The position numbers were made by a program, and so were the translations under genes. A stretch of DNA of 64,000 nucleotides, from NCBI GenBank assembly GCA_963753505.1, contig CAVWCK010000002.1:205659-269658 (forward strand), in the 5' to 3' direction. This DNA comes from an uncultured Actinomycetota bacterium (GTDB taxonomy: Bacteria; Actinomycetota; Actinomycetes; Mycobacteriales; Mycobacteriaceae). This document shows, one piece after another, positions 29,440-49,548 of this stretch (its first letter is position 1; every line of letters begins with the position of its first letter). The notes under the pieces were generated by a model. It searched no databases. It was not told the DNA's origin and was given only the letters and a program-made list of their open reading frames with translations.

Positions 29440-29526
29440 CGATCTCCGTTCGCCAGGACCAGGGTGCAACGGGATAAATATGTCACGCGAGACGCAACTT
29501 GGCGAGTGAAGCACGAATTTTCTTTG

Positions 29527-30610: not shown

Positions 30611-31402
30611 CTAACGGCCGATCAGGCGGTGATACACCGACCGAGCAAGCTCGCTTCGACGAAGGAGTTGAACTGGTGTCCGGGGTACGCGTAACAACAC
30701 CCCCACGTCGTGACCCTGGTACACCGATGTGTGCGTCTCGACCAGCGTGCGGTCCGCGAATGCCGCCTCGACCGCGCTGCGATACTTGCTGCAGTCCTGC
30801 GGATCGGCGAACAACACCTTGTTGAATCCGATCATGAAGGGCGCCAACCGACCGCCCTGATCGAGGTATCGCAGAGTGCCGACGGCAACTCCGGGCCACT
30901 GCGGGTTGAAGACGTCATCGGCGATGACGACGCCGCCTTCCGCCAGCGTTGCTTCCGCCAACCGCATGTCGCTCAGGACGATCTGCTCGGTATGACCCCC
31001 GTCGACGCTGAATAGGCGGACCGGTGATCCAGTGAGCTCCAGAAGCGCGTCAGCAGACAGCTTGGTTGAATCGCCTTGGTGAGTGATCAGACCGTCGAGC
31101 GATGACCACCGTTGCACGTTGGAGCGGAAAATCTCCAAGTCGCCTTTACCGGAGTTATCGATGTTGAGGTCTTGATCACCGAACACGTCGATGGCAATCG
31201 AACGCTCGCCCGACCGTTGCAATAAGTCCAACGCGATGAAGAGCTTGCCGTGGTGAACACCGATCTCCGCGACGGAACCGGTCACACCGCCCGCACGCTG
31301 GGCAGAATCTACGGCCTGTAGAACATCTAAAACTTCGGGTTGGAGCCACCCCTGAACGGCCCGGTGGCCAATGAATTTATAGCGCGTGAACCCCTGCGTC
31401 AT
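30611..31402 (-). CDS. Class I SAM-dependent methyltransferase (Methyltransf_24-like)
   Basis: GSVAEIGVHHGK, QGDS, RLFSVDGGHT, GGVVIADD. Confidence 0.85.
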   Translation of the reverse strand: MTQGFTRYKFIGHRAVQGWLQPEVLDVLQAVDSAQRAGGVTGSVAEIGVHHGKLFIALDLLQRSGERSIAIDVFGDQDLNIDNSGKGDLEIFRSNVQRWSSLDGLITHQGDSTKLSADALLELTGSPVRLFSVDGGHTEQIVLSDMRLAEATLAEGGVVIADDVFNPQWPGVAVGTLRYLDQGGRLAPFMIGFNKVLFADPQDCSKYRSAVEAAFADRTLVETHTSVYQGHDVGVLLRVPRTPVQLLRRSELARSVYHRLIGR

Positions 31403-31466: not shown

Positions 31467-32720
31467 TCATCCGCGGCGCTTCATGGCGGGCCGCTCCACG
31501 AATCGGTACGTGAGCGATGCGCACACAACCGTCGCGGCTGTGACAATAACAAGCGCAATGAGAAAGCCCCACAGGTTGTCTGGAATGGGCGGTTTCAGGC
31601 GGGCAAAGACGACCAGCACCGGAAAGTGCCACAAATAGGCTGAAAGCGATACCGTGCCAATGTAGCGCAGCGGACGCCAGTCGGTTATCGACGCGACCGT
31701 GGATCGCTCCCCCCGGGCGATCGGCGCCACGATGAGCAGGATAAACGCCCCTGACCCGAAGGCGAATGCCGTCGCGACATAGCGGGGATTCAGCACAAAC
31801 AAGACCATGGAACAGGCCAAACCGAAGCCTGCGACGGTCGCAAATATCACCTGAAGCCGAAATGTCGTCATCGATTTCCACTTGCCCCGGGCCAGCGCCA
31901 CATAGAGTACGGCGGCCAGCATGCCAAACGCGAAGTTGTCCGCTATGCCCAGGAAACTGCGGGATAGCACCGCGATCCAGTTCGGGCCCCAGTAGGCTTC
32001 CAGAATTGCGTCCGGATAGTATTTGGCCTGCAATACCGCGACGGTGGTATTAGTCGCGATGCCGACGACGCATAGTATCAATGGCGGCCACATGGCCGCT
32101 TTCCACGGTTCAGCCCGTTTGTGAGCCCAGGCGAATATCGCAATGCCGATCACGGGCAATAGAAGATAAAATCCCCACTCCGTGGTGAGCGACCAGCTTG
32201 GGCTTATCCCCGTTTGAAAGGTCGCTGGAAACAGAGAGTGCGCGAGCGTCAGGTTCGCCAATAGCTTGATGGGATCCGTCATCATGCCGGTGCCGTGGTC
32301 CGTGTGACCCCATCCGGCTGTGAGCGGATTTTCGACGTAGACAGCCCGCAGGACGAAGTTCGCGACGAGAAAGATGACGAGGTACGCCGGGAAGATACGG
32401 AAGATCCGGTGCCTGAAATACGTCAAGGTGTCGGGCATCGAACCGCCCTCGCTCAGGCGCTTGACGTACGGCAGGTAGAGGAGAAAACCCGACAAAACAA
32501 AGAACAGGGTCAGCAATTGGCCGACAAAGTCGACGTGCGTTGCGGCCAGAAAGGCCGGAGTGAAGAACACGGCGACGTGCAGGGTGATCACACCAAGGCA
32601 TGACATGCCGCGGGGCCCGTCAAGCCCGGCGAGCCGCTGACGCCGTTCAGCCTTGGTGGCGACTGAGGTCTCACCAGGGCCGGGCAGTTGCGCTGGTTCA
32701 AACAACGGCCGCACCTCCAC
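31467..32720 (-). CDS. Acyltransferase family 3 (OafA-like) membrane O-acyltransferase
   Basis: RLAGLDGPRG..C..V...H, FFVLSGFLL, R.FRIFPAY, SWSLTTEWGFY, SLSAYLWH, TYRFVERP. Confidence 0.9.
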   Translation of the reverse strand: MEVRPLFEPAQLPGPGETSVATKAERRQRLAGLDGPRGMSCLGVITLHVAVFFTPAFLAATHVDFVGQLLTLFFVLSGFLLYLPYVKRLSEGGSMPDTLTYFRHRIFRIFPAYLVIFLVANFVLRAVYVENPLTAGWGHTDHGTGMMTDPIKLLANLTLAHSLFPATFQTGISPSWSLTTEWGFYLLLPVIGIAIFAWAHKRAEPWKAAMWPPLILCVVGIATNTTVAVLQAKYYPDAILEAYWGPNWIAVLSRSFLGIADNFAFGMLAAVLYVALARGKWKSMTTFRLQVIFATVAGFGLACSMVLFVLNPRYVATAFAFGSGAFILLIVAPIARGERSTVASITDWRPLRYIGTVSLSAYLWHFPVLVVFARLKPPIPDNLWGFLIALVIVTAATVVCASLTYRFVERPAMKRRG

Positions 32721-34149
32721 CGCCGGGTGTCGTCAGCGCATGTTTCGACCGGCTTACCTCGTCTGCACCGGTCTCCGCGTCCGGATAGGGCTCTGGCGGC
32801 GAAAGGGGCCCTGCGGCCAGGAACGCGATCAAGACGCTCCAGACCATCGTCAGCGGAGGGAGGGTGACCACAGGAAAATCGAGTTGCAACCCGACAAGCG
32901 CGAAACCGGTGAATATGGCGCCGATGGCACCGGATTCCCACGGTCCTCGACGGGCTTGGCGGTATGCATACACCACTCCGACGATCACTACGAGGAGGAA
33001 TGCAATTCCGGTGAAGATTCCGCCGCGGTACACCGTTAGCAACGGACTGTTAGCAACATGGTTGGTCTTGTATGCCAGGTCGTCCTGGATGAATTCCGGC
33101 CGACCCCAGCCCAGCCCGAACCACCAGCCGCCTTTCATATAGTAGAAATATTCGGCGTAACCAGCAGCGCGATCTGTGGATCCTTTATCGGCGGACGAGA
33201 ACGACGTCATGATGCGTTTGTAGATTGCTGGGACCGCCATGGCGGCTGCGGAACCGATGATTGTCGTGGCCAATATAGCGAGTCGTTTGCCGGTTGACTG
33301 GCGCTGAAATAGCAGAAACAGCAGCACCGCGACCAGAAACGAGAATATGGCGGCGCGGCTCAATGAAATGATCAGGGCGGCGGCCAGCACTGGCGTAACC
33401 ATCGCCCGCTGCCATCCGCGCAGGAGCGGAACCGATAGTGCCACTGCAACCAGCATAAAGATGCCGGCCGCGTTTGGGTCGACGTAGGTACCGGTGAGGC
33501 GAATGGCGACGGTGTCCTCAACCGTATAGAAGCGGAGGTGTGTGCCAACCGCGCCGGTTCGGCCGTAGCCGATTATCGAAAGATAATTCAGCGAATTGGC
33601 GGCCTTGTCCAGGAAGAAAATTCCAAGGGCGAAGACGGCAGCCGCCCACGCCGAAAATACGAATAGCCTGCCGAATCGGAGCAGTTCGTCACGGTCGAGT
33701 CGGAGCAGGGCGAAGACCATCGACGTTGCCAGTATCCATTTGATGAATTCGATGACGTCACGGATGCCGTGCGCAGTCATCACCAGTGAAACCACCGACG
33801 TCACCACCAACAAGCCGACGGCCAACTCCAGCACGTTGGTGCGGGTCTCGGCAATTGGATGGGTGAGCAACGCGCACCACACGGCGAACGCGAGAACCAG
33901 CAGCAACGGCTGCCCGAATCCCGGGAGTATGCCGAAGGGAAGGGCGCCGAGCACGACGGCCAGTGCGCCATAGATGAACCGCGGGTGAAGCAAGATGGCG
34001 GCGGTACCGACGATGAGGACCAGCAATGCCATCCCGAGCCGGCCGCCTCCGCCGGAGCCGAGGAGTGCACCCGCGACAAGGCAAACAACGCCGGTCGCGA
34101 TAGCGACCGCCCACCCTGATGAGGGGCGCTGACCCACCTTAGTGATCAC
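32698..34149 (-). CDS. O-antigen ligase/polymerase-family membrane protein (probable Wzy)
   Basis: About 12 TM segments; RLTGTYVDPN, SLSRAA, S...R, WWFGLGWG, HVANS; GTGA-coupled. Confidence 0.8.
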   Translation of the reverse strand: MITKVGQRPSSGWAVAIATGVVCLVAGALLGSGGGGRLGMALLVLIVGTAAILLHPRFIYGALAVVLGALPFGILPGFGQPLLLVLAFAVWCALLTHPIAETRTNVLELAVGLLVVTSVVSLVMTAHGIRDVIEFIKWILATSMVFALLRLDRDELLRFGRLFVFSAWAAAVFALGIFFLDKAANSLNYLSIIGYGRTGAVGTHLRFYTVEDTVAIRLTGTYVDPNAAGIFMLVAVALSVPLLRGWQRAMVTPVLAAALIISLSRAAIFSFLVAVLLFLLFQRQSTGKRLAILATTIIGSAAAMAVPAIYKRIMTSFSSADKGSTDRAAGYAEYFYYMKGGWWFGLGWGRPEFIQDDLAYKTNHVANSPLLTVYRGGIFTGIAFLLVVIVGVVYAYRQARRGPWESGAIGAIFTGFALVGLQLDFPVVTLPPLTMVWSVLIAFLAAGPLSPPEPYPDAETGADEVSRSKHALTTPGGGGAAVV

Positions 34150-35261
34150 CGTTTCAGCCAATCCTGCACTGCGGCATGCGGTTTGCCGGCACGCCACCGT
34201 GCCCCGTTCTTCTCATGGAGCATGTCGCCGTCCGCTGCTGCGGCGCGCTGGTCGCGCAGATAGCGGCGGCATTGTTCAATCATGCTCGACTCATCGTCGA
34301 AAACCTCGATGTCCAAAACCGAGCTCAGCGATCCGACAGCGGCCGATGTGCCGACGACGGGGAGCCCACGGCTCGCAGCGTCGAGTATCTTAACGCGCAC
34401 CCCCCCGCCCGTCGTGATCGGCGCGACCATCGCTCGACACGAGGCAAGAAGTCCCGCAAGGTCGTCGACGAATCCCAGATCGTGCGCTCCCGATGGGAGC
34501 TCTAGTGCTTTGGCGTTCGGGTCGGCGGCGCCGACTATAAGGAGTTGCGCGCCTTCGATGTCTATTGCGATGCGCGGCCACGATTTCAAGAGAGTCTCGT
34601 ACGCCTTCTGGTTCGGCGGCCATCGTCGGTCGCCAAGGAAGACAAGACGCGGGCCGGTGTTTGCCACCGCGATCCGTTCCATCGGGGGCAGCGTGATGTC
34701 GAGCCAATGCGCGCGGGTACCACCTAGACCCGCATAGAACTCCGCCTCGGAGCGGTCATATGCGCCGACGGAGTACGCGTTCCGTGCCACGCGAACTTCA
34801 TCCCGGCGGATACGCGGACCTTCGGCCAATCCGATGACGGGCCGGGTCTGCCGCCACACTGGCGCCTCGGGAACTTCGGTGCTGACCGCGAGTATCGACT
34901 CCGATTCAGGAGCGGCTGCAAAGCGCTGCGAGCGCATCACGGCTTCTGCCATGTAACTGTGGATTGCAACGAAGATGTCGGTCTCGGCCTGGTCGACCGC
35001 GTCGACGAGTTCTTCGAACGCGAACCTGGTATGTACGAGACTGCGCCGCCGGCGCAAACTGTCCACCATCAGCGAGCCTGGCCGCACAGCCGGCTTCGCC
35101 ACTCGCCGGTAGCCTCCGTGTGTGCACTGCGGTTGCTCCGAAAGGCAGATGACCCCGATATTGAATGATTCCCGGGCCAGGGACATAACGAGATTCGCTG
35201 TGGTCAAATCACCGGTCGATTGAATTCCAGGATCCTTCGACAGCAGAAAGGTGGCTTTCAC
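34146..35261 (-). CDS. Glycosyltransferase (GT-B, GT4-like)
   Basis: LVFLGDRRWPPN, APITTGGGVRVKILDAASRGLPVVGT. Confidence 0.85.
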   Translation of the reverse strand: MKATFLLSKDPGIQSTGDLTTANLVMSLARESFNIGVICLSEQPQCTHGGYRRVAKPAVRPGSLMVDSLRRRRSLVHTRFAFEELVDAVDQAETDIFVAIHSYMAEAVMRSQRFAAAPESESILAVSTEVPEAPVWRQTRPVIGLAEGPRIRRDEVRVARNAYSVGAYDRSEAEFYAGLGGTRAHWLDITLPPMERIAVANTGPRLVFLGDRRWPPNQKAYETLLKSWPRIAIDIEGAQLLIVGAADPNAKALELPSGAHDLGFVDDLAGLLASCRAMVAPITTGGGVRVKILDAASRGLPVVGTSAAVGSLSSVLDIEVFDDESSMIEQCRRYLRDQRAAAADGDMLHEKNGARWRAGKPHAAVQDWLKR

Positions 35262-36436
35262 TGCTGCCGCACTTCGCCGACGCTATCCTGGTCAAGCTTT
35301 ATCCGCTGGCGGTAAATCCCGCGGTAGTAAACCGCGATCAGGGCGAATTCGCACAATACGCTGGCGGTGGCGGCACCGTATGCGCCGAAGAAGTGAACCA
35401 CAGGAAACAGCAAAGCCAACTTCACAACCGCAGCCGCAGAAGTCGCCCGAACACGCAACGCATCACGATGTTGCTGGAAAAGAATAGCGACGAAACTGAA
35501 TTCTATCGACCTCGCGGCCACCCACAAGGACATGATCAAGCAGATGATGCCCACATTATCCGCGCCACCCCAAATCAGAATTCCGACGCCAATGGCGGCC
35601 ATCGCGGCCCCGGTCACCATCGCGACCTTGAAAAGGTCTCGCAAGAGGGGGGCCGCGTGCAGCTGACCCGCGGCCGCGCGCATATGCGCAACGAATGTGC
35701 TGGCGTATTGCTGCCCAATTGTCGAGACCGCGATTGCAGTGACCAGTGCGACCGAGTAGTAGCCGGTCACCTCGTCGCCGGCAAGAAGGCCGAGCATCAG
35801 CAAATCGCCCTGACCATAAATGGCCGCCGCCAGCGCCTCTGTCGACAAGATGAACATTTCCCGGCGACCACCGGGCCGAGCCGGCCGCCGCCCGGGTACG
35901 TACCTGAAGCAAACCACCATGATCACCGCGTAGGGCGCCACATACAGGGCGGAGGCGATGCTCAAGTGTGGATCGCTGGCGAGGAAAAGGTATGCAGCCG
36001 CCGGCGCGATGCTGGCGGGTTGGCGGATCGCGTCGAACCGTGTCGCTACGTCGGGCCGACCGGCTCGTAAGTACTGGCTCTTGAACGCGTTGAAGAGCAG
36101 CTCACCGGCGGCCACGACGATCGCGAATCCGACCACGTACCAGTCCAGGAAGCAAACCACCCCGATGATCCCGATGACGGAGCCGAAAAGCACTCGCGCG
36201 CACCGCTCACGCTCAAATCGCTCCTCATCGATCCGCAGTGACCGCACATAGAACGCGTTGTCAATCGCCGCGTTGATCGTCGCAGCAGCGGCCACGCCGA
36301 GCGCATACTTCCCGTAGTCGGCGATGCCCAGCTTCGCGATGAGCAGCGCGGTAAACCCGAGTCCGAGTAAGCGCGTGCTGTAAATCCATGTGGACGCGAT
36401 CGCGGTGCGCGCCAGATGGCTGTCGGCGATCTTCAT
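35258..36436 (-). CDS. Polysaccharide flippase (Wzx-like)
   Basis: Multi-TM; AKLGIADYGKYAL, DLLMLGLLAGDEVTGYYSVA, HFFGAYGAA; ATGA/GTGA coupling on both sides. Confidence 0.8.
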   Translation of the reverse strand: MKIADSHLARTAIASTWIYSTRLLGLGFTALLIAKLGIADYGKYALGVAAAATINAAIDNAFYVRSLRIDEERFERERCARVLFGSVIGIIGVVCFLDWYVVGFAIVVAAGELLFNAFKSQYLRAGRPDVATRFDAIRQPASIAPAAAYLFLASDPHLSIASALYVAPYAVIMVVCFRYVPGRRPARPGGRREMFILSTEALAAAIYGQGDLLMLGLLAGDEVTGYYSVALVTAIAVSTIGQQYASTFVAHMRAAAGQLHAAPLLRDLFKVAMVTGAAMAAIGVGILIWGGADNVGIICLIMSLWVAARSIEFSFVAILFQQHRDALRVRATSAAAVVKLALLFPVVHFFGAYGAATASVLCEFALIAVYYRGIYRQRIKLDQDSVGEVRQQ

Positions 36437-37527
36437 GCCGTTGATACGAGCTCGGTCCACGCCTCCAGGAGCGGTGCGGCGCAATGGGCGACGGTTCGCT
36501 CTGACTGAAGCCAGCCGATCTCGTCGGCAAGCTTGGCAAGCATTTCCTCGTCGCGGACGAGGACGTTGGCTCGTCGCGCGAGATCCTCGATGTAACCGTC
36601 GATACTCACCGCGCCGCCCTCCGCCGCGATTTCAGGCAACGCTCCGTCGAGATTGCAGAGTATCGGTGTGCCATACGCGTATGACCGGGAGATCGCGCCG
36701 GACGCCGGAAAACCACGGCCGTAGCGGCTCTTCTTGTCATACCAAACGACCAAGCACCGAATGGATTCGAAGAACGCGTCCTCGGCGGCGTCGTTGACCT
36801 CGCCGAGCACCTCGATGCCTTCGCAGGAGGGCACCGAGTCCGTGCCTCGCCCCGCGATCACGATCTGGATATCGTCGTCGAGTTGAGCACGAAGCGCATT
36901 GAGCTCTTCGAATCCCTTACCCCGGTACAGGTGGCCGAACAATCCGATCGCGAGGGGCCGCTCGGGCAGACGTTTGGAGACGGGTCTGGAAGCGATGGGG
37001 TGCCGGGTGGCCCTGGCGTCGACGTCAGGTTGCCGCAGCTGAGTCTGTCGCGCGCCGACCGATGTGAGCGTCGCGACGATCCGGTCCTTACACACGCGAC
37101 GCTGCAGCGCATTGGTGACGAAGCGAAACGGGTAATGCACGGCGTGATGCAGGAGTCGGTGACGTTTGATCAGCGACGTGTCGAACGGCCACCAAACCGG
37201 CTGGGGGGCATCGTGCACAGTTGCGGTAACCAGAATGCGGCGCGGAAGCATCGCTGCCCAGAACGGGGTGAGGGAGCCCGCGCTTTGCTCGAAGTGGACG
37301 ATCACCGGGCCGTGCTTCGCCGCCTCCCGCAAATGCGCACGGATCTTGCGGACATTGCGGACGACGTCCAGCGCCGTCTCATCGGAGCTATGTTCGACCC
37401 AGCACTCGACCACGCGCCGGAAGTGCGGCTTGACCTCCGAGACGAAATCGAGCGCGTAATCCCCGACACCGCTGTGTCCCGGCTCAGGTGACACATAGAT
37501 CAGCTGAGTCTCGCTGAGTGCAGCCAC
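36433..37527 (-). CDS. Glycosyltransferase (GT-B, GT4-like)
   Basis: SGVGDYA, TVHD, FGHLYRGKGFE, ASGAISRSYAYGTPIL. Confidence 0.82.
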   Translation of the reverse strand: MAALSETQLIYVSPEPGHSGVGDYALDFVSEVKPHFRRVVECWVEHSSDETALDVVRNVRKIRAHLREAAKHGPVIVHFEQSAGSLTPFWAAMLPRRILVTATVHDAPQPVWWPFDTSLIKRHRLLHHAVHYPFRFVTNALQRRVCKDRIVATLTSVGARQTQLRQPDVDARATRHPIASRPVSKRLPERPLAIGLFGHLYRGKGFEELNALRAQLDDDIQIVIAGRGTDSVPSCEGIEVLGEVNDAAEDAFFESIRCLVVWYDKKSRYGRGFPASGAISRSYAYGTPILCNLDGALPEIAAEGGAVSIDGYIEDLARRANVLVRDEEMLAKLADEIGWLQSERTVAHCAAPLLEAWTELVSTA

Positions 37528-37593
37528 GCACGTGCTCCTCTGTACGGGTTGAGGTGGGGTCCTACGATGCCAGCAACGACGGGCGCATCGCTG

Positions 37594-38211
37594 TCAATAG
37601 AGTAGTGGGCGGAAAATCGGCTGGTAGTCCAGAGCTGACTTCCGTTGCCCGCGCTCCTTCGCCGGAATTCCCGCGACGATGCTCATGTCGTCAACATCGT
37701 TGGTGACCAACGAGCAAGCCCCCACCACTCCGCCGACGCCGATGCTGACGTCCTTCAATACGGTTGCCCGGCTGGCCACCCAAGCATGGTGACCGATGCG
37801 CACGGGGCTGAGCTCGATACCGAAATCGTCGCTGTCGATCAGGTGCACACCTGTGATGATGTGGACGTCGGATGCGATCACCACATCGTCATCGATAACG
37901 AGCCCACCGCGCGCATCCAGTAAGCAATCAAATCCAACCGAGCAGCGATTGCCAATCTGAAGCGCGCGGATCCCCAGAACCTTCGTTCCCATCATGATTG
38001 CCGTCTGGTGCCCGATTTTCGCGCCGAAATAACGTAGGAAGGCTTGCCGAATAGTGTGGGATGGAATGTTGGTGATCAGATAATTGAATAGCCGCTCGCC
38101 TAAATGGTCGAGCCGCGTCTGGGACTCGGGGTCGATCATCGCCGTCCTCTCTGAGCTGGAATTCCTCCAGAACTCGCCATCGTCCGAAGTGTGCTGAACG
38201 TTAGCCGACAT
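37594..38211 (-). CDS. Hexapeptide-repeat (LbH) O-acetyltransferase, WcaF-like, copy 1
   Basis: FGAKIG, IGNRCSVG, LDARGGLVIDDDV.I, PVRIGHHAWV, VAGIPA; RBS GGGAG before ATG 38211. Confidence 0.87.
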   Translation of the reverse strand: MSANVQHTSDDGEFWRNSSSERTAMIDPESQTRLDHLGERLFNYLITNIPSHTIRQAFLRYFGAKIGHQTAIMMGTKVLGIRALQIGNRCSVGFDCLLDARGGLVIDDDVVIASDVHIITGVHLIDSDDFGIELSPVRIGHHAWVASRATVLKDVSIGVGGVVGACSLVTNDVDDMSIVAGIPAKERGQRKSALDYQPIFRPLLY

Positions 38212-38563
38212 CGCCCTCTCCCGGCTCCCGACGGGACTCGACGGGCCAGCCGCCGCCGTGCGCAAGCGCAACATTCGACGTTGCGGGGGCGCGAAACCGC
38301 CCGGCGGTGGCGACGCATTGTCGGTGCAGCAACGTCGTAAACCCCACTGCAGCAGTGGTCCCCGGACCATGCATCATCGACGCCTCCAACGCTTTGCTGA
38401 TCTCATGCAGTGCGATCCTTGCATACCATGTGCAGCGACGCTTCTCCGTGGTGTCTCGCTGGCCCCTGCCTGCGACCCTCGAGGTGCAGAAGCGCGTTAC
38501 CGTTACATTAGCTGTACACTGCCCGGGCGCCGCAAACACCGAATGAGCGAGTGGAGGACACTC

Positions 38564-39871
38564 TTGGATATTTTGAGCTACCTGGCGATATGGCGGAGGA
38601 GATGGCTGCTTGTCTTTTCTGGCATTTTGCTGGGAGTCGCGGGCGCGGTGGCCGTATCGGCATTGACGCAGCCCCTATATCTGGCCTCGGCGCGACTCTT
38701 TGTGACGACTACCGGCGGCGCGTCGGTCGTCGAGACCTATCAGAACAACCTCTTCGGTCAGGAACGCGTGTTGTCCTATGCGAAGTTGGCGGCGGGCCGA
38801 CAAGTGGCTCAACGCTCGATAGACGCGCTTCACATTGAAATGTCGCCGGAGCAACTGATGTCTCAGGTGAGCGCCGAGCGCGTGCCGTTGGATACTGTTT
38901 TGCTGGACATTTCCGTGCGCAATCCCAATCCGGATATGGCCAGAGACCTCGCCAACACCGTCGCGCGGCAAACAACACAACTCGTGGAAGAGCTGGAGAC
39001 CTCAGCGCGCGGCGGTATACCGGCGGCCACGGCGGTGCTGGTGGACCAGGCCGAAACACCCGCCTTCCCGTATGCGCCGAACTGGTTCCGCAACATCCTG
39101 GTCGGCTTGTTCGGAGGTCTTCTGGTGGGATTGATCGGGGCCATCGCGCGCGACAAGCTGGATCGGTCGGTGCGCTCAACGGGACAGGCGGCCGATGCGG
39201 CCGGGACCCGTTCGGTTGGATCGGTTCCTCCTCGGCCGAAGCGAGCCGCTGCCATACCGTTCGGGGCTTCCGAACCGGAACTGACCGAGGCATTTCGGAC
39301 CGTTCGGACGAATTTGCTGGCGGGCGCCAACGGAAATGCGCCCAGTGCGATCGTCGTTGCGGACGCAGACGCGAAGGCCGGCGCCGACACAGTGACTTTG
39401 GGTTTGGGCGCCGCGCTCGCCGAATCGGGGCGCTCGGTTGTCGTCATCGACGGCAATCTGCGCAATCACGGTCTTTCCCAGGCGCTCGGTCTCGGCCAGA
39501 CGCCAGGTCTGTGCGACGTGCTCGCCGGGTCTGCGTCCACTTACGAAGCGCTTGTGACCACCGCAGTCGCGGGCCTCACGGTTCTCCCGTGTGGTCATAC
39601 CGACCAAGACGCCGGGGAACTGTTGAGCAACCAAGACTTAACGGGGTTGATCAAGCAATTGCGCAGCGAGTTCGACTTCGCGTTGATCACTGGCCCACCG
39701 GTGCTCCCGTACAGTGACGTCGTGGTGATGTCGGGCTTGGCGGATGGAGTGTTGCTGGTCGCGCGGGCGGGGTCTACCTCCACGCTGGATCTGGCCGCCG
39801 CGGCCGACAAGATCCGGGTAGCGGGTGCCGAGTCGCTTGGGGTCGTGGTCACCAACGTGAAACGTGCCTAG
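38564..39871 (+). CDS. Polysaccharide co-polymerase (Wzz/CapA domain) fused to a degenerate BY-kinase domain
   Basis: TTG start after GGAGG; ILSYLAIWRRRW-TM-PLYLASARLFV...SPEQL...P.W..NIL-TM; EAFRTVRTNL; kinase motifs altered (see findings). Confidence 0.87.
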   Translation: MDILSYLAIWRRRWLLVFSGILLGVAGAVAVSALTQPLYLASARLFVTTTGGASVVETYQNNLFGQERVLSYAKLAAGRQVAQRSIDALHIEMSPEQLMSQVSAERVPLDTVLLDISVRNPNPDMARDLANTVARQTTQLVEELETSARGGIPAATAVLVDQAETPAFPYAPNWFRNILVGLFGGLLVGLIGAIARDKLDRSVRSTGQAADAAGTRSVGSVPPRPKRAAAIPFGASEPELTEAFRTVRTNLLAGANGNAPSAIVVADADAKAGADTVTLGLGAALAESGRSVVVIDGNLRNHGLSQALGLGQTPGLCDVLAGSASTYEALVTTAVAGLTVLPCGHTDQDAGELLSNQDLTGLIKQLRSEFDFALITGPPVLPYSDVVVMSGLADGVLLVARAGSTSTLDLAAAADKIRVAGAESLGVVVTNVKRA

Positions 39872-40002
39872 CATGTCGATGGCCGAGCGCCTGCACGGAC
39901 GAACCCCGAAGTTGCGATCGGCTGGGCGTGACTGAGTATCCTTTGCTGCTGATGCCAGGATCCACGGGCAGGAGCCGGAGAGGACGCGGACGTCTGCGCC
40001 CG

Positions 40003-41256
40003 ATGACATTCAGGTTGGTGACCGTCGTCGTCCTGGTGAGTGCGTTCGCGACCGCATGCCTTTCGCCACCGCCGGCTCTGCCGCATGCGCCCGTGACCGT
40101 CACGACGACCTTCCCGTCGCACCCGGCGCCCCTTCCGAACACCGCGGAGGGCTACCCGCAGCTGGGAGGAACCGAACCCGGTTCCCTCGTGAGCGTCTCC
40201 GCGTTCGACACGATCGACCCGCGGATAACCGTGACCGGTTCGACGGCCTACCGACTTCATTACATATCGACGTCCGCCGTCGGGAACGCACCCGTCGAGG
40301 TAACCGGACTGATAGTGGTTCCCGGGGGCACGGCGCCAGACGGCGGATGGCCAGTCATCGCCTTCAATCACGGCAACACCGGCATTGCGCAGGGCTGCGG
40401 ACCGTCGCTGTATGAAGACTTGCTCAACCAGTGGAGTCCGGCGGCTGTTTGGCTGCTACACGGTTACGCCGTGGTGATGGCCGACTACGAGGGCCTCGGC
40501 CTCAGTGGGCAGCACGCGTTCCTCAACTCCGCGGCACTCGGCCGCAACGTCATCGACGCGGTACGCGCCGCACGGCACGTCCGTCCGGACATCGGGTCTC
40601 GTTGGGGCGCGTTCGGCGGCTCGCTCGGTGGCCTCGCAACCTGGGCCGCCAACGAGCAGGCCTCAACGTACGGCGCCGGTCTCGACCTGGTGGGTGCGGC
40701 GGCGTGGGTGCCCGTGGCCAATGTGGCAGAACTGCCGGTCAAGGCGCGCAACCGCACACTGACGCGCGACCAGCTGCACGTGTATTTCGCGGCGGTCATG
40801 GGGCTGAAGGCAACCACACATCCGGAACTCGACTTGACGCGCTACATGCGCGGTGGGTTCTATGAAAACCGTGAGCTGCTCCTGGAGTGCACCGGTCCGC
40901 GCGTAGCGGATGCCGTGAAATTTCTCCAGAAAGCCGATCCCGGCGACCTCGTGCCCGCCGACGACGAGGCCGTCAGCCAACTATCGCAGTGGCTCGGCGA
41001 GATCGGGTTACCACAGCAGCGCACCGCCGCGCCGATGCTGGTGATCTACGGGTCCGCCGATACGCTCGTGGACCAAGCTTGGATCGAGACCGCCATCGAC
41101 AAGGCATGCGCGATGGGTGACACGATCGAGTGGGAGCTACACCCGGGCGAGGGCCACGGCGATATCGACGCGCAGAAAGCGTTCCCCTGGCTGCGCGCAC
41201 GTTTCGACGGTCAAACGGCGGTCAACAAGTGTCCCACCGGTCCGATCAAACGATGA
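40003..41256 (+). CDS. LIP-family (secretory lipase) alpha/beta-hydrolase lipoprotein 1
   Basis: Signal ending ATA-C; HGNTG, GYAVVMADYEGLG, nucleophile GGSLG, GSAD, GEGHG. Confidence 0.87.
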   Translation: MTFRLVTVVVLVSAFATACLSPPPALPHAPVTVTTTFPSHPAPLPNTAEGYPQLGGTEPGSLVSVSAFDTIDPRITVTGSTAYRLHYISTSAVGNAPVEVTGLIVVPGGTAPDGGWPVIAFNHGNTGIAQGCGPSLYEDLLNQWSPAAVWLLHGYAVVMADYEGLGLSGQHAFLNSAALGRNVIDAVRAARHVRPDIGSRWGAFGGSLGGLATWAANEQASTYGAGLDLVGAAAWVPVANVAELPVKARNRTLTRDQLHVYFAAVMGLKATTHPELDLTRYMRGGFYENRELLLECTGPRVADAVKFLQKADPGDLVPADDEAVSQLSQWLGEIGLPQQRTAAPMLVIYGSADTLVDQAWIETAIDKACAMGDTIEWELHPGEGHGDIDAQKAFPWLRARFDGQTAVNKCPTGPIKR

Positions 41257-42467
41257 CGACGCGAATGGCCCGCGGCACATTGCTGCTCGCAGTCGCGGCG
41301 ACGGGCCTGCTGGTGGCGACCCTGCCCGCATGCAGCACACAGCAACGGTCGACCAACGAGGTCGTCGATCAACAGGTCAAGGATCCGGCGGCGGTGCCAC
41401 CCGGAACGCTGCTCGAGTCGGCGCCCTTCCCGGCCGTTGATGTACGTGTCAACCGCGCGCACGCCGCGGCGACCCGGATCACTTATCGCTCGACCTCTGG
41501 CGTCGACGGCAGCGCCACGGCAGTTACGGGCGCCGTGTTCACGCCCAACACTCCACCTCCGGTGGACGGCTGGAAAGTCGTGGTCTACGGACATCCGGGG
41601 GCGGGCACCCTCGAGGAGTGCGGGCCGTCGCGCTATGCGGACCTGCTCCGTAATGGAGCCCAAATCGAGACGCTCCTACGCGAAGGCTATTTGGTCGTCA
41701 TGGCCGACTACCAGGGCTTGGGAAGCAAAGGGCCGCATCCATTTCTGGAACCGAAAACGCTCGGCTACAACCTCATCGATGCTGTCCGCGCCGCGCGTGA
41801 ACTCGAACCCCGGGCAGGAACGCGCTGGGCTGCGTTCGGTGGGGCGCTGGGCGGGGAAGCAGCGTGGGCGGCGGCCGAGTTCGCACCGGCCTACGGTCAG
41901 GGCCTCGAGATGGTAGCCGCCGTTGCGTTCAATCCGTATGCCAATCTTTCTGCGATGCCCTGGGAAGCGTTTAACCGCACACTCAATTTCGAGCAGCTGC
42001 CGCTCATGCAATACATCGTCAACGCTGTCGCTGCGCTGCACCCGGATGTGCCCATTGATGATTATCTGCATGGCTTTGTCAGGGAGCGCAACGAAGACCT
42101 GCTCCAGTGCAGCGGCGCTGGGCTCGACGCCCGAAATCAGCTGGTATTCGAGATGACACCAGACGATGTGGCACCGGTAAGCGCCGATGCCGCCGCGCGG
42201 CTGTCCGCGATCGTAGGAAGCTGGTCTCTTCCGGCATCTGCGCCGACGCCTGTGCCGATCATGGTCGTCGTGGGATCGGTGGACGGAATGGTGTGGCCCG
42301 ACTGGACCAGGGACGCCGCGCGGCGCGGGTGCGAGCAGGGCGAACAAATCGCCTGGTTACTCCGGGCGGCAGAAGGCCATGACAACATCAAGCTGCAACA
42401 GGCCCTTGGCTGGCTCGCGGACAGGTTCGCCGGGCTGCCGGTCGACGGCGGCTGCAATATCGTGTAG
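41253..42467 (+). CDS. LIP-family lipoprotein 2, nucleophile Ser replaced by Ala
   Basis: ATGA overlap; lipobox LPA-C; HPGAG, GYLVVMADYQGLG, GGALG in place of GGSxG, GSVD, AEGHD. Confidence 0.85.
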   Translation: MTTRMARGTLLLAVAATGLLVATLPACSTQQRSTNEVVDQQVKDPAAVPPGTLLESAPFPAVDVRVNRAHAAATRITYRSTSGVDGSATAVTGAVFTPNTPPPVDGWKVVVYGHPGAGTLEECGPSRYADLLRNGAQIETLLREGYLVVMADYQGLGSKGPHPFLEPKTLGYNLIDAVRAARELEPRAGTRWAAFGGALGGEAAWAAAEFAPAYGQGLEMVAAVAFNPYANLSAMPWEAFNRTLNFEQLPLMQYIVNAVAALHPDVPIDDYLHGFVRERNEDLLQCSGAGLDARNQLVFEMTPDDVAPVSADAAARLSAIVGSWSLPASAPTPVPIMVVVGSVDGMVWPDWTRDAARRGCEQGEQIAWLLRAAEGHDNIKLQQALGWLADRFAGLPVDGGCNIV

Positions 42468-42499
42468 CTAACGATTTCGACGGGGGCTGCGCGGATCGC

Positions 42500-43699
42500 A
42501 TGAGGAGCTACGTGAGAAGGCCGGTTGCGGCGTGGGTGATTGCTGTGCTGGTGCTGGCACAGCTGACGGGCTGCACGTCATCGAGATCGTCGCCTCCTGG
42601 CAATCAACCGGTCCAGGTTGCGACCGCCGACCTTTCCGGCACGGGCCCGGGCTCGCTGGTCGAGGCCAAGACGATCCCGGATATCGACAGGTCGGTCCCG
42701 TTGGGAACGGTGTCGGCACGTGTCATCTACCGGTCGACATCGGGTATCGACGGTTCCCAAACAGAGGTATCAGGAGCCGTGTTCGTTCCACCGGGACGCC
42801 CGCCAAGAGGTGGCTGGCCCGTTATCGCATATGCCCACGGCACCACCGGCGTCAACCAAGAATGCGCCCCCTCACTCTCGCCGAATCTGTTTGGCACGAT
42901 CAACGGCATCGTGGCATTCCTTCGGTTGGGCTTCGCGGTGGCGGCCACCGATTATCAAGGTCTTGGCGCGCCAGGTGCCCACCCATACCTTGAGGCGAAA
43001 ACCGCCGCTTTCAACGTGATTGATTCGGTGCGAGCCCTGCGCGCGGTGTCGCGCGATGTGTCGAAAACGTGGTCGGCGTACGGCGGCTCGCAGGGCGGCG
43101 CGGCGGCGTGGGCGGCCAACGAACAGGCGAGCACGTATGCCACCGACCTCAAGTTGATTGGCAGCGGCAGTCTGGTACCCCCTGCCGATATTTCCGACTA
43201 CGCGGCCCTGGCCGGTGCTGGCGAGATGACCAAAGACCAACAGGCGGCCTACATCGGGATCCTGACAGGACTCCAGCGAACGCGCGCCGGCTTCAACATC
43301 GATGACTACCGGCGCGGTTTGGCGCAAGAAAAGTGGGATGTCTTGTCCGCGTGCTCGGGACCGAAGGTCGACGAACGGACAAACGTCATCTACGAGCTAC
43401 CCGCGGAAGACCTGATGCCCGCTACGCCGGAGGCCCAGCAACACATGTTCGAGTTGCTCAAGGAGATGTCGCTGCCGCAGCAACGCGCCGCCGCACCGAT
43501 GCTCGTCATCTACGGCGGCCAAGACACTTTCATCCCGCCGCAAGCCACCGAGGCCGCGATCGCGCGCGCCTGCGCGATGGGCGACACGGTGCAGACCATC
43601 TTCCAGCCCGACAAGGGCCACGGTGACGTAGACGGCACCGTCTACCTCGAGTGGCTGGCCGAAAGGCTGGCCGGTCAACCGGCGCCGAACAGCTGCTGA
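42500..43699 (+). CDS. LIP-family lipoprotein 3
   Basis: Lipobox LTG-C; HGTTG, GFAVAATDYQGLG, GGSQG, GGQD, DKGHG. Confidence 0.88.
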   Translation: MRSYVRRPVAAWVIAVLVLAQLTGCTSSRSSPPGNQPVQVATADLSGTGPGSLVEAKTIPDIDRSVPLGTVSARVIYRSTSGIDGSQTEVSGAVFVPPGRPPRGGWPVIAYAHGTTGVNQECAPSLSPNLFGTINGIVAFLRLGFAVAATDYQGLGAPGAHPYLEAKTAAFNVIDSVRALRAVSRDVSKTWSAYGGSQGGAAAWAANEQASTYATDLKLIGSGSLVPPADISDYAALAGAGEMTKDQQAAYIGILTGLQRTRAGFNIDDYRRGLAQEKWDVLSACSGPKVDERTNVIYELPAEDLMPATPEAQQHMFELLKEMSLPQQRAAAPMLVIYGGQDTFIPPQATEAAIARACAMGDTVQTIFQPDKGHGDVDGTVYLEWLAERLAGQPAPNSC

Positions 43700-43700
43700 T

Positions 43701-44288
43701 TCAGTAGAACTTCGGCGCGAAGTCGGGCAGGTAGTCCAGCGACGATTTGCGGAGCCGACGAGGAACGGCCGGCACACCGGCCACGACCGTCATGGGATCG
43801 ACATCGTCGCGCACCATCGAGCAGGCACCGACCACGGCGCCCGCTCCCAGGTAGACGCCGGTCAGGATCGTAGATCGGCTCGCGATCCACACGTGGTGCC
43901 CGATGCGGATCGGCGAGTGGACCCGCCCGAAATCGTCCGAGTTCACGTCGTGGTGACCCGCGATGATCTGCACATCGCTGGCGATCACTACGGCGTCCTC
44001 GATCGTGACCTGACACCTCGCGTCCAGCAGGCAGCGCGAACCAATCGAACAATGGTCCCCGATGGTGAGCCGCTTGATTCCGTGAACCCGGGTGCCCATC
44101 ATGATCGAGGTCTTTTTTCCGATTTTTGCTCCGAAGAGCCTCAGCCAGGCGATCCGGATCCGATGTGACGGCACTCGGGTGATGAACAAGTTGTAAAGCC
44201 GTTCACCGATCTGTTCCTGGACATCGGTGGGTACCTCATCGTAGAACTGCTTCTCACGCTTAACAATTGGCTCTTTGCCAGTTGTCAC
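43701..44288 (-). CDS. Hexapeptide-repeat (LbH) O-acetyltransferase, copy 2
   Basis: GTG after GGAAGGAG; FGAKIG, IGDHCSIG, LDARC, PIRIGHHVWI, VAGVPA; clear paralogue of 37594-38211. Confidence 0.87.
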   Translation of the reverse strand: MTTGKEPIVKREKQFYDEVPTDVQEQIGERLYNLFITRVPSHRIRIAWLRLFGAKIGKKTSIMMGTRVHGIKRLTIGDHCSIGSRCLLDARCQVTIEDAVVIASDVQIIAGHHDVNSDDFGRVHSPIRIGHHVWIASRSTILTGVYLGAGAVVGACSMVRDDVDPMTVVAGVPAVPRRLRKSSLDYLPDFAPKFY

Positions 44289-44405
44289 GAAGACAGTCTC
44301 CTTCCAATTACACCGACCGACGCCGGGTTGCTGACAGACCGGGCACATTCTGCCAGGCTTTCTCGCGAGCGTTGCATCGGAGTGTCGGTGTAGGCTTTGC
44401 TCTCG

Positions 44406-45413
44406 ATGTCATCAGTCTTACATGTCGCTGCTCGCTATGGCGGTGGCATTGTGACAGCGGTCCAGCAGTATGTCGAGGCGACGCCGGACCTCAACCACAT
44501 CTTGATAAGTCGCGAAACCATGTTTTCCGTGCGGGACCGAAGCGACCTGTTCGCCGCCACGTTGCCGCTTCCCGAGGGGCGGGCCGGCGTCGGCGCGATT
44601 CGCGCGGCGATCGCCGCGCATCAGATCGACGTGGTGCACGCTCACTCCAGCCACGCGGGCGCGCTCGTTCGTCTCCGTAAAATGCCGTCGCGAGTCGTTT
44701 ACACGCCGCACGCCTTTGCCCCGCTGGCCAAGCGGGGAAGCAAAGAGTGGATGGTCGGGCAGGCGGAACGGCTGCTGGGACTTCGACCGGTGGTTATCGC
44801 CGCGGTGAGCGAGGACGAGCTCCAGCTGGCCCGCAAGTTCTCGCCCCGGTCCGAGGTGCTGCGGATTATCAACCTGCCAGACCGGTCCCTGCGACCGTCT
44901 GCTGCGCATCGACCTGAGCTCAAAGTCGTGATGGTGGGTCGCGTCCTGGCGCAAAAAGACCCGGTGTTCTACGCCCAGGTCGCTGCGCTGGCACGGAAGG
45001 CCAATCGCCCGTATGCGTTTCACTGGCTGGGCGACGGTGACCCGAAGTTGACGAGTGTGCTGAGGAATGCAGGCGTCACCGTGTCCGGATGGTTGTCACC
45101 CGAACAGCTGTACGCCGAGCACGCGGCAGCGCAGGTTCATCTGCACACGGCTCGATACGAGGGATCATGCCTCAGTGTCTTGGACGCCGCCGCGGTCGGG
45201 CTCCCGACCATTGGTCGTGCCATGCCGGGGGTGCGAGATGTCTCCTGGCTCACCATCGTTGACACCCCCGAGCAGGCATTGACGGAGCTTGACCGGTTGG
45301 CGGAACCCGCCTGGTGGTCGACGTGTTCGCAGCGGTCCCTAGCGGGGGTATCCGAGCACACCTCGGGCAATCTTCGTCGAAGGCTGTTGCGCGCGTACGG
45401 CTTAGCTGAGTGA
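44406..45413 (+). CDS. Glycosyltransferase (GT4)
   Basis: YGGGI, DVVHAHSSHAG, VVYTPH, VGRVLAQKDP, ARYEG.CLSVLDAAAVGLP. Confidence 0.88.
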   Translation: MSSVLHVAARYGGGIVTAVQQYVEATPDLNHILISRETMFSVRDRSDLFAATLPLPEGRAGVGAIRAAIAAHQIDVVHAHSSHAGALVRLRKMPSRVVYTPHAFAPLAKRGSKEWMVGQAERLLGLRPVVIAAVSEDELQLARKFSPRSEVLRIINLPDRSLRPSAAHRPELKVVMVGRVLAQKDPVFYAQVAALARKANRPYAFHWLGDGDPKLTSVLRNAGVTVSGWLSPEQLYAEHAAAQVHLHTARYEGSCLSVLDAAAVGLPTIGRAMPGVRDVSWLTIVDTPEQALTELDRLAEPAWWSTCSQRSLAGVSEHTSGNLRRRLLRAYGLAE

Positions 45414-45424
45414 CTGCGGCGGGT

Positions 45425-46465
45425 TCAGTCGCGGGCGAGCGCGGCAGCCGCGGCCTTCGGCCGCCAATCCGACGTCAGCAGCGCGCCGAAGTTTGATTCG
45501 CGGTTGTCCTGATCACCACTGTTGTTGTCGCGCACGCTGTAGATGAACGCCGGCCCGGTGTAGTCCAGCCGTGCCGCGGCCGCCAGGACGTCGACGATCT
45601 GGCGGGCCTGTTCCTCCTGGCTGACACCTTCGGCGGTGCTTGCGCTTGTCGGCGCACCGAGCTCCGTCATCCAGATCTTCTTGCCCCCGTCACCGTGAGC
45701 GACCATGACGTCATGCATTCGGGCGACGTCCGACCACCCGTTCAACGGGTCGGCTGCGAAGCCGGTTGGGAAAACATAGGGATGCATGGCCGCGGCGTCG
45801 AAGTAGCCCTTCGCGCCAGCGTCATACATCGAGGCCAGGAAAGCCGGCGGGGCCTCGGAGCCCAGCAGAGGGCTCAGGCCCGCCGCGATGACCGTGCTGT
45901 TGGGCTGGACGCTCTTGATCGCGGGATAGGCCGCCTTCAGAAGCTCCGTATAGCGCGGGGCGTTGTAAGTGGCGAAGCCGAAGAACGAGGCGAGGTTGGG
46001 TTCGTTCCAGATCTGCCAGTTCGACACGCGCGACCCGTACCTGCCGATGACAGCCTTCGCGAAATTCGCGAACGCGTCCGCATCGACGGGGGGCGCGGTG
46101 AAGTATGCGCCCGGCGCGCGGGCCCAGGGCGGAGTGAAGGCGATGTGGCCAAGCACCTTCAATCCCCTGGCGGTCGCGCCGTCGACGATCCGGTCGAACA
46201 CTGACCAATTGATTTGTCCCTGAACCGGCTCAGCCACATTCCAGTCGATCAGTACCCGCAGCCAGGAGGCGCCCGTCTGCGAGACAGCGTCGAGTTCGCG
46301 GTTGAGGTCCTGCGGGTTGAGGTACAGCATCCAGGAGCCCTCGCTGAACCCGTACCCGGCCGCCGGAGCCGCCGGCTGCGCGGAGACGCGAGGTGGATCG
46401 GGGAGCACAAGACCGGCGGCCAGAAGAACCACGCCGACGATCCCGACGGAAAGCACACGGCGCAT
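45425..46465 (-). CDS. Secreted clan GH-A (GH5/GH39-like) glycoside hydrolase
   Basis: Sec-type signal MRRVLSVGIVGVVLLAAG; WQIWNEPN, AMHPY, KKIWMTELG, ESNFGALL. Confidence 0.87.
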   Translation of the reverse strand: MRRVLSVGIVGVVLLAAGLVLPDPPRVSAQPAAPAAGYGFSEGSWMLYLNPQDLNRELDAVSQTGASWLRVLIDWNVAEPVQGQINWSVFDRIVDGATARGLKVLGHIAFTPPWARAPGAYFTAPPVDADAFANFAKAVIGRYGSRVSNWQIWNEPNLASFFGFATYNAPRYTELLKAAYPAIKSVQPNSTVIAAGLSPLLGSEAPPAFLASMYDAGAKGYFDAAAMHPYVFPTGFAADPLNGWSDVARMHDVMVAHGDGGKKIWMTELGAPTSASTAEGVSQEEQARQIVDVLAAAARLDYTGPAFIYSVRDNNSGDQDNRESNFGALLTSDWRPKAAAAALARD

Positions 46466-46917
46466 TCGCACAGCGCAGAACATACCCGAGCGCCACACCT
46501 ACGTCGTCTGCATGGCGTCCTAATCTCGAATGGCCATAGAGTCGCCAATCGCGTTGGCGTTGTTTGTCATTGACGGACACATGGGTGCTGGCAAACGCAG
46601 CCGCAACGCTACGAGCAACCACGTTGCAACTGAGGCGCAATCGCGAGCGGGGGCCGTCGACGCGGTCGTAATCGCGCTCCGGCTGCGCTGACTGATTTGC
46701 GGGCTGGCAACTGAAAGTACATACCCGCGCCTGGCCGCCCTCGGAACCGCAAACTCGTTGCAGTCGAAGGCTGTGGCACCCAGAACGTCGCTGCGGGCGG
46801 ACAGTTCCGGTCGGCCCGGCTGCGGTTTGTCGTCGGCGTCTTGGCCTCGTGGCTACCGAAGGCTCTGCTCGGGTTAGGATTTGCCAACGCAAGCATTGAC
46901 CTCTCCGAAGGGCGCAG

Positions 46918-49548
<2,631 letters not shown>

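Follow-up and report, generated by a model that had tools for sequence, protein, structure and literature searches.

In the group 1 capsule loci of Gram-negative bacteria (wza-wzb-wzc) a lipoprotein gene lies beside the gene of the polysaccharide co-polymerase (PCP), and the locus is Wzy-dependent. A comparable arrangement is present in the stretch of DNA analyzed here, 64,000 nucleotides from an uncultured soil mycobacterium of the GTDB family Mycobacteriaceae, which is called the window throughout: a PCP gene, whose product gives a structural model matching Wzc, is followed by three genes for lipoproteins of the LIP family (LIP1, LIP2 and LIP3). Wza, however, is a β-barrel/helical channel and not a hydrolase, and the window locus differs further in that it has no phosphatase, a kinase domain which is dead and the PCP gene in first place. 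A second described relative is the EcpK/EpsV subfamily of PCP-2 proteins from Myxococcus xanthus, which according to the abstract of PMC12004946 also belongs to a Wzx/Wzy pathway and has a domain resembling bacterial tyrosine kinases (BY-kinases) that lacks the catalytic Lys and the Tyr cluster. In contrast to that subfamily the pseudokinase domain and the PCP are here fused into one protein, the carriers belong to the Actinomycetota, and LIP hydrolases, of which this abstract makes no mention, are always present.

As enzymes the LIPs resemble other systems. Among solved structures their best sequence relative is LipA of Xanthomonas oryzae pv. oryzae (PDB 3H2G-3H2K), an extracytoplasmic serine hydrolase of the same fold; it is a cell-wall-degrading esterase with a lid module, and this lid module binds a glycoside. 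The similarity is confined to the N-terminal half of the core and therefore the lid and pocket of LipA cannot be transferred to the LIPs. Moreover LipA is a single, secreted, untethered enzyme of a plant pathogen with neither an array nor a link to a PCP. Candida antarctica lipase A (CalA) and CalA-like enzymes (PF03583; 2VEO, 3GUU, 9JC9) share with the LIPs the Pfam family, the top-ranking fold and the Ser-Asp-His triad, but they are only 16-19% identical, fungal and secreted, act on triglycerides and have no polysaccharide context. The proposed mode of action has parallels in the AT3-SGNH proteins OafA/OafB and in AlgI/AlgJ/AlgX and PatA/PatB, the latter two being pairs of an MBOAT and an SGNH-like protein, where a serine acyl-enzyme on the outside decorates a glycan during its export. 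These systems use the SGNH fold, whereas the LIPs are α/β-hydrolases, and they move acetyl groups from a dedicated membrane carrier, whereas 11 of 54 loci have LIP arrays and no AT3 membrane acyltransferase. Finally, Antigen 85 and the corynebacterial mycoloyltransferases are likewise α/β-hydrolases of mycolate bacteria, by which sugars or proteins receive acyl chains in the extracytoplasmic space. The analogy is a functional one only, as they belong to a different family, do not form lipoprotein arrays and are not linked to a PCP.

We consider it likely that the LIPs are functionally part of a Wzx/Wzy surface-polysaccharide pathway. The best explanation of the whole, to which we assign a rough probability of 0.42, is that these pathway parts would act by acyl transfer and that inactive copies would serve as adaptors.

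The open reading frames (ORFs) and their translations give four consecutive genes spanning 38543-43699:

38543-39871, plus strand: PCP with a fused tyrosine-pseudokinase domain, from profile and AlphaFold2 (AF2) matches to Wzc/CapAB
40003-41256, plus strand: LIP1, lipoprotein with a Pro-rich linker and a predicted serine hydrolase domain of the CalA/LipA fold (PF03583, 60.5 bits)
41253-42467, plus strand: LIP2, lipoprotein paralogue and likely pseudoenzyme (PF03583, 59.0 bits)
42500-43699, plus strand: LIP3, lipoprotein (LTGC) with an intact triad (PF03583, 47.0 bits)

The intergenic spacings are 131, -4 (an ATGA overlap) and 32 bp, and the order and gaps of about 130, -4 and 32 bp given in a preliminary description of this DNA are thereby confirmed. 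The longest ORF of the PCP begins at 38258, and a GTG at 39928 is another possible start of LIP1.

It had been suggested in the same description to test whether LIP triplets co-occur with wzc/wzy in other genomes. In a genus sample of 201 genomes, arrays (three or more tandem LIP paralogues) are carried by 20 genomes besides that of the window, and in all 20 of them the first LIP is preceded, at a distance of no more than a few hundred bases, by the end of a gene for a Wzc homologue in the same orientation. A scan of the GTDB species with a LIP alignment gave 75 related loci, whose organisms are named by the record titles. These loci were chosen by their similarity to array LIPs, so that the figures describe the array paralogue group and not the whole LIP family. 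In 72 of the 75 loci the gene immediately 5′ of the first LIP, and in the same orientation, codes for a Wzc homologue, and in all 72 loci having a PCP the latter adjoins a LIP. The three exceptions are two contigs cut off upstream and a single-gene contig in a metagenome-assembled genome (MAG) that is probably mis-binned. This 17-kb contig (L099, DAITMW010000147.1), from a MAG labelled Steroidobacteraceae, is probably actinobacterial; it carries one LIP 44% identical to LIP1 and no other genes of the locus. Since 72 of the 75 loci and all 20 other array genomes share the order Wzc, then LIP, the comparison argues that this gene order is not due to chance. The carriers are Mycobacterium/Mycolicibacterium, to which the window itself belongs, Rhodococcus and Rhodococcoides (including R. 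fascians and R. kroppenstedtii), Williamsia and Gordonia (G. amarae, G. paraffinivorans), and the Wzc-LIP pairing occurs in at least 70 further species of Mycobacterium, Rhodococcus, Williamsia and Gordonia.

Two layouts can be distinguished (the signs > and < give the strand; GT, glycosyltransferase; HexAT, hexapeptide-repeat acetyltransferase; PGT, phosphoglycosyl transferase). The window has type I, AT3< Wzy< GT< Wzx< GT< HexAT<, followed by Wzc> LIP> LIP> LIP> and HexAT<, which was also found in Mycobacterium sp. MAG MFD12130 (62-66% identity), M. sp. ST-F2, R. kroppenstedtii, Williamsia sp. CHRR-6, Rhodococcus sp. KRD197 and Mycolicibacterium sp. 018/SC-01/001; G. amarae has this layout with two LIPs. 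Type II, frequent in Mycolicibacterium and Rhodococcus, reads Wzy< Wzc> LIP> Wzz2> LIP> AT3> LIP> SASA> DUF218> PGT> LIP> birA. The block Wzc> LIP> Wzz2> LIP> is intact even where its place relative to the other genes of the locus has changed (L080, L086, L088, L096, L097 and L102). Gene calls in the relatives came from a crude ORF picker based on third-position GC, and their start codons are approximate. The first LIP carries a lipobox in 67 of 68 Wzc-LIP pairs, with the Cys codon at a median of 64 nt past the Wzc stop codon. As this is about the length of a signal peptide, Wzc and the first LIP mostly abut or overlap. The claim that the trio is part of the polysaccharide locus is borne out by an adjacency which is found in four or more mycolate genera and is preserved where the locus has been rearranged; that the orthologues are generally unlinked to polysaccharide genes does not hold for the array-type paralogues, to which this statement is limited.

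Co-occurrence of the other genes was counted in 54 complete-looking loci, all of which have the PCP by construction. Wzz2 is present in 48, AT3 in 43 and SASA, a carbohydrate esterase interleaved with the LIPs, in 41 of them. Wzz2 is a kinase-less Wzz-like chain-length protein of about 220-250 amino acids encoded between the first and second LIP in these 48 loci; an example (L043:17735-18475, genome G148) matches PF02706 with 21.6 bits, which is below the cut-off. From its place it follows that there would be two PCP-type proteins per pathway, each followed by a LIP. The AT3 gene often lies just 5′ of a LIP in type II loci. AT3 is nevertheless missing from 11 and SASA from 13 of the 54 complete loci, and an obligatory supply of acyl groups by AT3 is thereby excluded as a general rule. 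Since LIP arrays occur in 11 loci lacking AT3, this protein is not the general acyl source, and the earlier proposal that it delivers the acyl groups has to be given up in this general form.

All three LIPs exceed the gathering score of 23 bits in the Pfam scan. Each of them has the HG and DYxGLG motifs, four conserved Cys and an N-terminal hydrophobic stretch with a lipobox Cys at its end, the latter being assigned by pattern and hydrophobicity and not by a dedicated predictor. The lipobox of LIP1 (ATAC) is atypical at position -3, where its orthologues read AGC, TGC or SAC. The sites are:

40057-40059, plus strand: lipobox Cys of LIP1 (FATAC), by pattern
41331-41333, plus strand: lipobox Cys of LIP2 (LPAC), by pattern
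42572-42574, plus strand: lipobox Cys of LIP3 (LTGC), by pattern
40621-40623, 41059-41061 and 41155-41157, plus strand: Ser (GGSLG), Asp and His of the LIP1 triad, by alignment
43088-43090, 43523-43525 and 43619-43621, plus strand: Ser (GGSQG), Asp and His of the LIP3 triad, by alignment

Both the lipobox Cys of all three proteins and the HG and DYxGLG motifs had been read correctly beforehand. The description of all three as lipases needs to be narrowed: they are members of the LIP family, and LIP1 and LIP3 have the triad, but LIP2 reads GGALG, with an Ala codon (GCG, 41844-41846) at the site of the nucleophile, although its Asp and His are kept. Because Ala replaces the nucleophilic Ser, LIP2 is not a competent serine hydrolase and is likely a pseudoenzyme.

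The AF2 model of LIP1 (pLDDT 87) matches CalA (2VEO) in Foldseek with an E-value of 9e-21 and a template modelling (TM) score of 0.68, and TM scores of 0.66-0.72 were obtained with CalA, CalA-like lipases and LipA (3H2G-K). Residues 1-48, comprising the signal peptide and a Pro-rich stretch, are disordered in the model, which fits a flexible tether. By sequence the nearest solved structure is LipA of X. oryzae (3H2G, E 1e-21), and then come Legionella lpg1103 and Candida lipase A. NCBIfam has no family for LIP1 or LIP2 and gives for LIP3 only faint matches to polyhydroxyalkanoate depolymerases far below the cut-offs, and no family of the Antigen 85/mycoloyltransferase (esterase-D) type is among the Pfam matches of LIP1-3 with E ≤ 0.01. 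The genome has five LIP-family genes, of which LIP1-3 have the three weakest PF03583 scores and are the most divergent. The two canonical ones, C2:201393-202235 (about 4 kb before the window) and C3:1131067-1131894, score 194 and 290 bits, are far nearer to the family consensus and both lie outside the polysaccharide island.

We surveyed 272 LIP genes in 76 loci. The four Cys are kept in 265 copies (97%), and 177 copies have a lipobox, 92 an N-terminal transmembrane or signal segment and three neither of these. Thus 269 of the 272 are equipped with one or the other, and an extracytoplasmic, membrane-tethered position, placed earlier at the outer face of the plasma membrane, is supported by these predictions. 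The arrays consist of two to six paralogues. Ser-Asp-His is kept in 239 copies (88%) and each array retains at least one intact copy, which argues for selection for catalysis. The inactive copies, with Ser changed to Gly and His lost, are nearly all the first copy after Wzc and come from about 25 loci. In a tree rooted on the two canonical LIPs of the genome, class A comprises the copies after Wzc (65 sequences), class B those after Wzz2 (73 sequences) and class C/D those after AT3, before SASA or between PGT and birA (106 sequences). LIP3 of the window falls with class C/D (support 0.966), and LIP1 and LIP2 form a clade specific to type I. The tree thus indicates that the paralogues are old, position-specific and non-redundant. 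A recent tandem duplication of redundant lipases is excluded by the old position-specific clades which several genera have in common.

The PCP has two transmembrane segments, 38603-38668 (residues 21-42) and 39095-39148 (residues 185-202), with an outside domain of about 140 amino acids. Its profile matches Staphylococcus aureus CapA/CapB (4JMP, E 3e-43) and Escherichia coli Wzc (E 2e-40), and its AF2 model (pLDDT 84) matches full-length Wzc (7NHS, E 2e-26) and CapAB (TMt 0.88-0.94). The matches to the NCBIfam families of tyrosine autokinases and chain-length proteins (E 1e-27 to 1e-29) are below the cut-offs of these families, and that to Pfam Wzz (24.6 bits) is just under the cut-off of 25.5. 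Sequence and model together indicate a protein of PCP-2 type, with two transmembrane segments around an outside domain and a C-terminal P-loop domain homologous to BY-kinases. Its Walker A region, ADADAKAGADT, contains neither GK[ST] nor the Walker A lysine, and the C-terminus, ...GVVVTNVKRA, has no Tyr cluster. The same was seen in the LIP-linked PCPs of loci L051-L125: by alignment none of 69 has GK[ST] or the Walker A lysine, and each of the 69 relatives has no or one Tyr in the last 25 residues and no Tyr cluster. Type II PCPs read GR[ST] and keep Walker A′ and B; those of type I are more degenerate. As the kinase domain is degenerate, the window PCP is a pseudokinase and a phosphorylation-independent co-polymerase. 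Its earlier designation as a polysaccharide co-polymerase stands by the matches to Wzc and CapAB, with the reservation that the kinase domain has lost the Walker A lysine and the Tyr cluster. The second Wzc of the genome (C2:633197-634486) is a canonical BY-kinase (PDEGKST, DGDLR, SYRYSYTYY), and a genome search for LIP and Wzc genes revealed no LIP-family gene near it.

How might the LIPs act? We propose that flexible Pro-rich tethers hold them on the outside of the plasma membrane, next to the site of polymerization by PCP and Wzy, where they sit and would act on ester bonds of the growing polymer. The catalytic Ser would form an acyl-enzyme, from which the acyl group would pass to hydroxyls of the polysaccharide (O-acylation). 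Envelope lipids rather than AT3 would be the acyl donors, and since there is no energy source outside the membrane, an acyl-enzyme route starting from a lipid ester is plausible. The distinct old paralogues may serve distinct positions or acyl groups, and the inactive ones may be adaptors to the PCP; in the window this is LIP2, in roughly one relative out of three it is the first copy. That the LIPs specifically transfer acyl groups onto the polymer is held tentatively, at somewhat less than even odds. We commit to transfer because enzymes of the CalA family such as CpLIP2 favour acyl transfer over hydrolysis, because the arrays need no AT3 and because exopolysaccharides (EPS) of Rhodococcus, a genus with species that have the module, are reported to contain palmitate and stearate. 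In two recent surveys no acylating genes are named (PMC12298843, PMC12786566).

A number of observations limit this explanation or weigh against it. The spacing between Wzc and LIP1 in the window is the widest of all loci, with a gap of 131 nt and 185 nt to the Cys. A scan of 37400-44600 for promoter and terminator consensus sequences gave counts not above those of shuffled sequences and none between Wzc and LIP1. In favour of a coupling, contigs of two RNA-seq libraries from a Rhodococcoides fascians-like strain span the Wzc/LIP junction, and one contig of 3.9 kb covers several array genes; given the low depth and the possible carry-over of DNA, this support is weak. Ten single-copy orthologues lie in a conserved block that has no polysaccharide genes. 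Such single-copy relatives in unrelated contexts imply that the LIP fold is not specific to polysaccharides and has other jobs, and the array LIPs would then be a recruited, diversified branch. Lastly, neither the direction of the reaction, transfer or hydrolysis, nor the substrate can be read from the sequence.

The strongest competitor, which we regard as rather unlikely, is that the LIPs are polymer-editing esterases that remove O-acyl groups and in this way tune solubility, chain release or maturation. The acetyl groups removed would come from the cytoplasmic hexapeptide transferases or, on the outside, from AT3. The loci are indeed rich in acetyl- and methyltransferases, the nearest sequence relative (LipA, 3H2G) is a carbohydrate-directed esterase, and the SASA esterase found among the LIPs in 41 of 54 loci shows that ester editing belongs to these pathways. 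However, three to six old, non-redundant paralogues next to a separate SASA esterase are hard to explain by removal alone, and the arrays persist in loci that have no AT3.

Somewhat less probable still is that the LIPs locally remodel lipids of the mycomembrane or those bound to arabinogalactan, by hydrolysis or transfer, and so let the polymer cross the mycolate layer. Their role would then resemble that of lytic enzymes on secretion machines or of phage LysB esterases, for which the lipase fold would be suited. It is also in line with the restriction of Wzc-side arrays to the Mycobacteriaceae, where the inspected loci from other families number only three, and with the result that the scan of the locus genes revealed no export protein of the outer membrane that resembles Wza. 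On the other hand, lipoprotein or transmembrane anchors with short tethers put most copies at the plasma membrane and not at the mycomembrane, and the tight coupling is to the PCP and not to any outer component.

The inactive copies could also mean that the LIPs are mainly structural, building on the PCP a periplasmic conduit or scaffold that replaces Wza in function, with catalysis being secondary. The first copy after Wzc is always kept even in the roughly 25 loci where it has lost Ser and His, in most loci its gene directly adjoins the stop codon of Wzc, LIP2 of the window is inactive, and a pseudokinase PCP suggests control by scaffolding as proposed for EcpK/EpsV (PMC12004946). We think this improbable, since a full triad in 88% of the copies and at least one intact copy in each array point to selection for catalysis. 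That the LIPs are unrelated secreted lipases, used for instance in nutrient acquisition, and merely lie beside the locus would suit the single-copy relatives in unrelated contexts and the 131-nt gap, but is very unlikely in view of the 72/75 adjacency across genera, the abutting genes, the position-specific orthology and the interleaving of LIPs with Wzz2, AT3, SASA and PGT genes.

With regard to the distribution of the family, matches to the LIP profile with E ≤ 1e-100 occur in 22 of the 34 genera of the GTDB family Mycobacteriaceae, mostly as single copies, and arrays in some five or six genus codes. This family, to which the mycolate genera belong, is the only one where tandem arrays beside Wzc were observed. 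Matches in other families of the class are weaker and single-copy, and none of the three that were inspected lies beside Wzc. The ten single-copy orthologues mentioned above branch together close to the base of the array LIPs, and a few Mycobacterium singletons nest in class B. Their conserved block, present in several genera (L138-L147 and L127; for example L139:1872-17678), encodes a metallo-β-lactamase-fold protein, a P-type ATPase, a Na/H exchanger and the LIP, and continues with a LytS-like kinase, a LytTR regulator and two SSF (ActP-like) permeases with DUF485. One 425-bit match to the array-LIP profile, G489:C35:286468-287622 (L126, family code f52), stands in an unrelated context and nests on a long branch inside class C/D, which suggests a transfer out of the mycolate group. 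In one Mycobacterium genome (L135, G018:C7:458000-477999) purK, birA and a LIP are followed about 8 kb on by accD5, and there is no polysaccharide locus; the same site may here hold either what is left of the island or its forerunner. The idea that the LIP next to birA is an ancestral housekeeping gene was rejected, as birA-LIP without the locus was seen in one genome (L135) and the common single-copy orthologue is that of the Na/H exchanger-LytS/LytTR-ActP block.

The island of the window is bounded by birA (27047-27901) on the left and accD5 (47439-49313) on the right. Besides the PCP and the LIPs it contains:

27949-29514, minus strand: WbaP-like initiating PGT (PF02397 Bac_transf, 221 bits), at the left edge and adjoining birA
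29527-30141, minus strand: DUF218 protein (PF02698, 46.6 bits), recurring in related loci
30611-31402, minus strand: methyltransferase (PF13578, 47 bits)
31467-32720, minus strand: AT3 membrane acyltransferase (PF01757, 93.9 bits)
32698-34197, minus strand: Wzy-type polymerase (PF04932 Wzy_C, 36.7 bits against a cut-off of 31.7)
34146-35261, minus strand: GT of the GT1 family (PF13692, 64.6 bits)
35258-36484, minus strand: multi-pass membrane protein, probably a Wzx-type flippase by its conserved place in the locus
36433-37527, minus strand: putative GT of the GT1 family, weak match (PF00534, E 8e-4, below the cut-off), conserved in related loci
37594-38370, minus strand: hexapeptide-repeat acetyltransferase 1 (PF00132, 26.9 bits against a cut-off of 27)
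43701-44348, minus strand: hexapeptide-repeat acetyltransferase 2 (PF00132, 46.9 bits), convergent with LIP3
44397-45413, plus strand: GT of the GT4 family (PF13692, PF00534, PF13439)
45425-46498, minus strand: clan-A glycoside hydrolase (weak GH10, GH39 and GH1 matches), with homologues in related loci
46918-47649, plus strand: methyltransferase (PF08241, PF13489), at the right edge of the island and preceding accD5

Of the Wzx/Wzy components the PGT, Wzy and the PCP were thus found by profile. The Wzx candidate has no Pfam match in the window and was assigned by its membrane character and position and by a faint Polysacc_synt match (E 0.059) of a homologue in a related locus. Homologues of the WbaP-like PGT are present in most related loci, and the position of acetyltransferase 2 is conserved in type I loci. 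The two acetyltransferases flanking the PCP and LIP genes, 37594-38370 and 43701-44348, fall into one blast cluster and are paralogues, as had been claimed.

The third-position GC of the island genes is 0.70-0.78 and that of the glycoside hydrolase at 45425-46498 is 0.82, compared with 0.76-0.89 for the flanking genes, and the nearest type I loci, with 55-66% identity, are scattered over four genera. Taken together, the lower third-position GC and the spread of type I relatives over four genera suggest that mycolate genera have exchanged the island. A short way outside it, on the far side of fadE25, purE and purK, the plus strand encodes a glycoside hydrolase of 555 amino acids (20999-22666; GH5/clan A) with C-terminal LGFP repeats. 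A search of sequencing runs for the window found only two soil metagenomes, with 5-9% of words, and no RNA.

Our full-text literature searches gave no paper that connects wzc or wzy of these bacteria with genes for lipases or LIP-family proteins, although such an absence is not proof, and a 2026 review of Rhodococcus EPS does not contain any of the words wzy, wzc, lipase and acyltransferase. To our knowledge and in the papers searched, neither a Wza-like exporter nor a periplasmic set of modifying enzymes has been described for bacteria with a mycolate outer membrane. This conserved accessory enzyme set of a Wzx/Wzy pathway, with its fused pseudokinase PCP, is apparently undescribed; probably it puts acyl groups, fatty or other, onto the exported polymer or trims them. 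One may go further and ask whether pseudokinase PCP and LIP array together form a mycolate-specific machine which lipidates the Wzy polymer outside the cell with fatty or mycolic chains from envelope lipids, so that the polymer is anchored in the mycomembrane or partitions through it; this we regard as possible but doubtful.

The Wzx/Wzy pathways are well known, but the finishing, decoration and export of their polymers across a mycolate outer membrane are not. The fixed partnership of PCP and LIPs in dozens of species offers concrete genes through which the acylation, retention or release of the polymer may be approached. If the reading as a lipidating machine is true, the LIPs would be a new class of polysaccharide acyltransferases of CalA fold and would put names to the missing genes for the fatty-acid-containing exopolysaccharides of Rhodococcus. 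They are also a candidate explanation for the reported lipid content of these EPS, which are important for hydrocarbon tolerance, for foaming in Gordonia and for biofilms.

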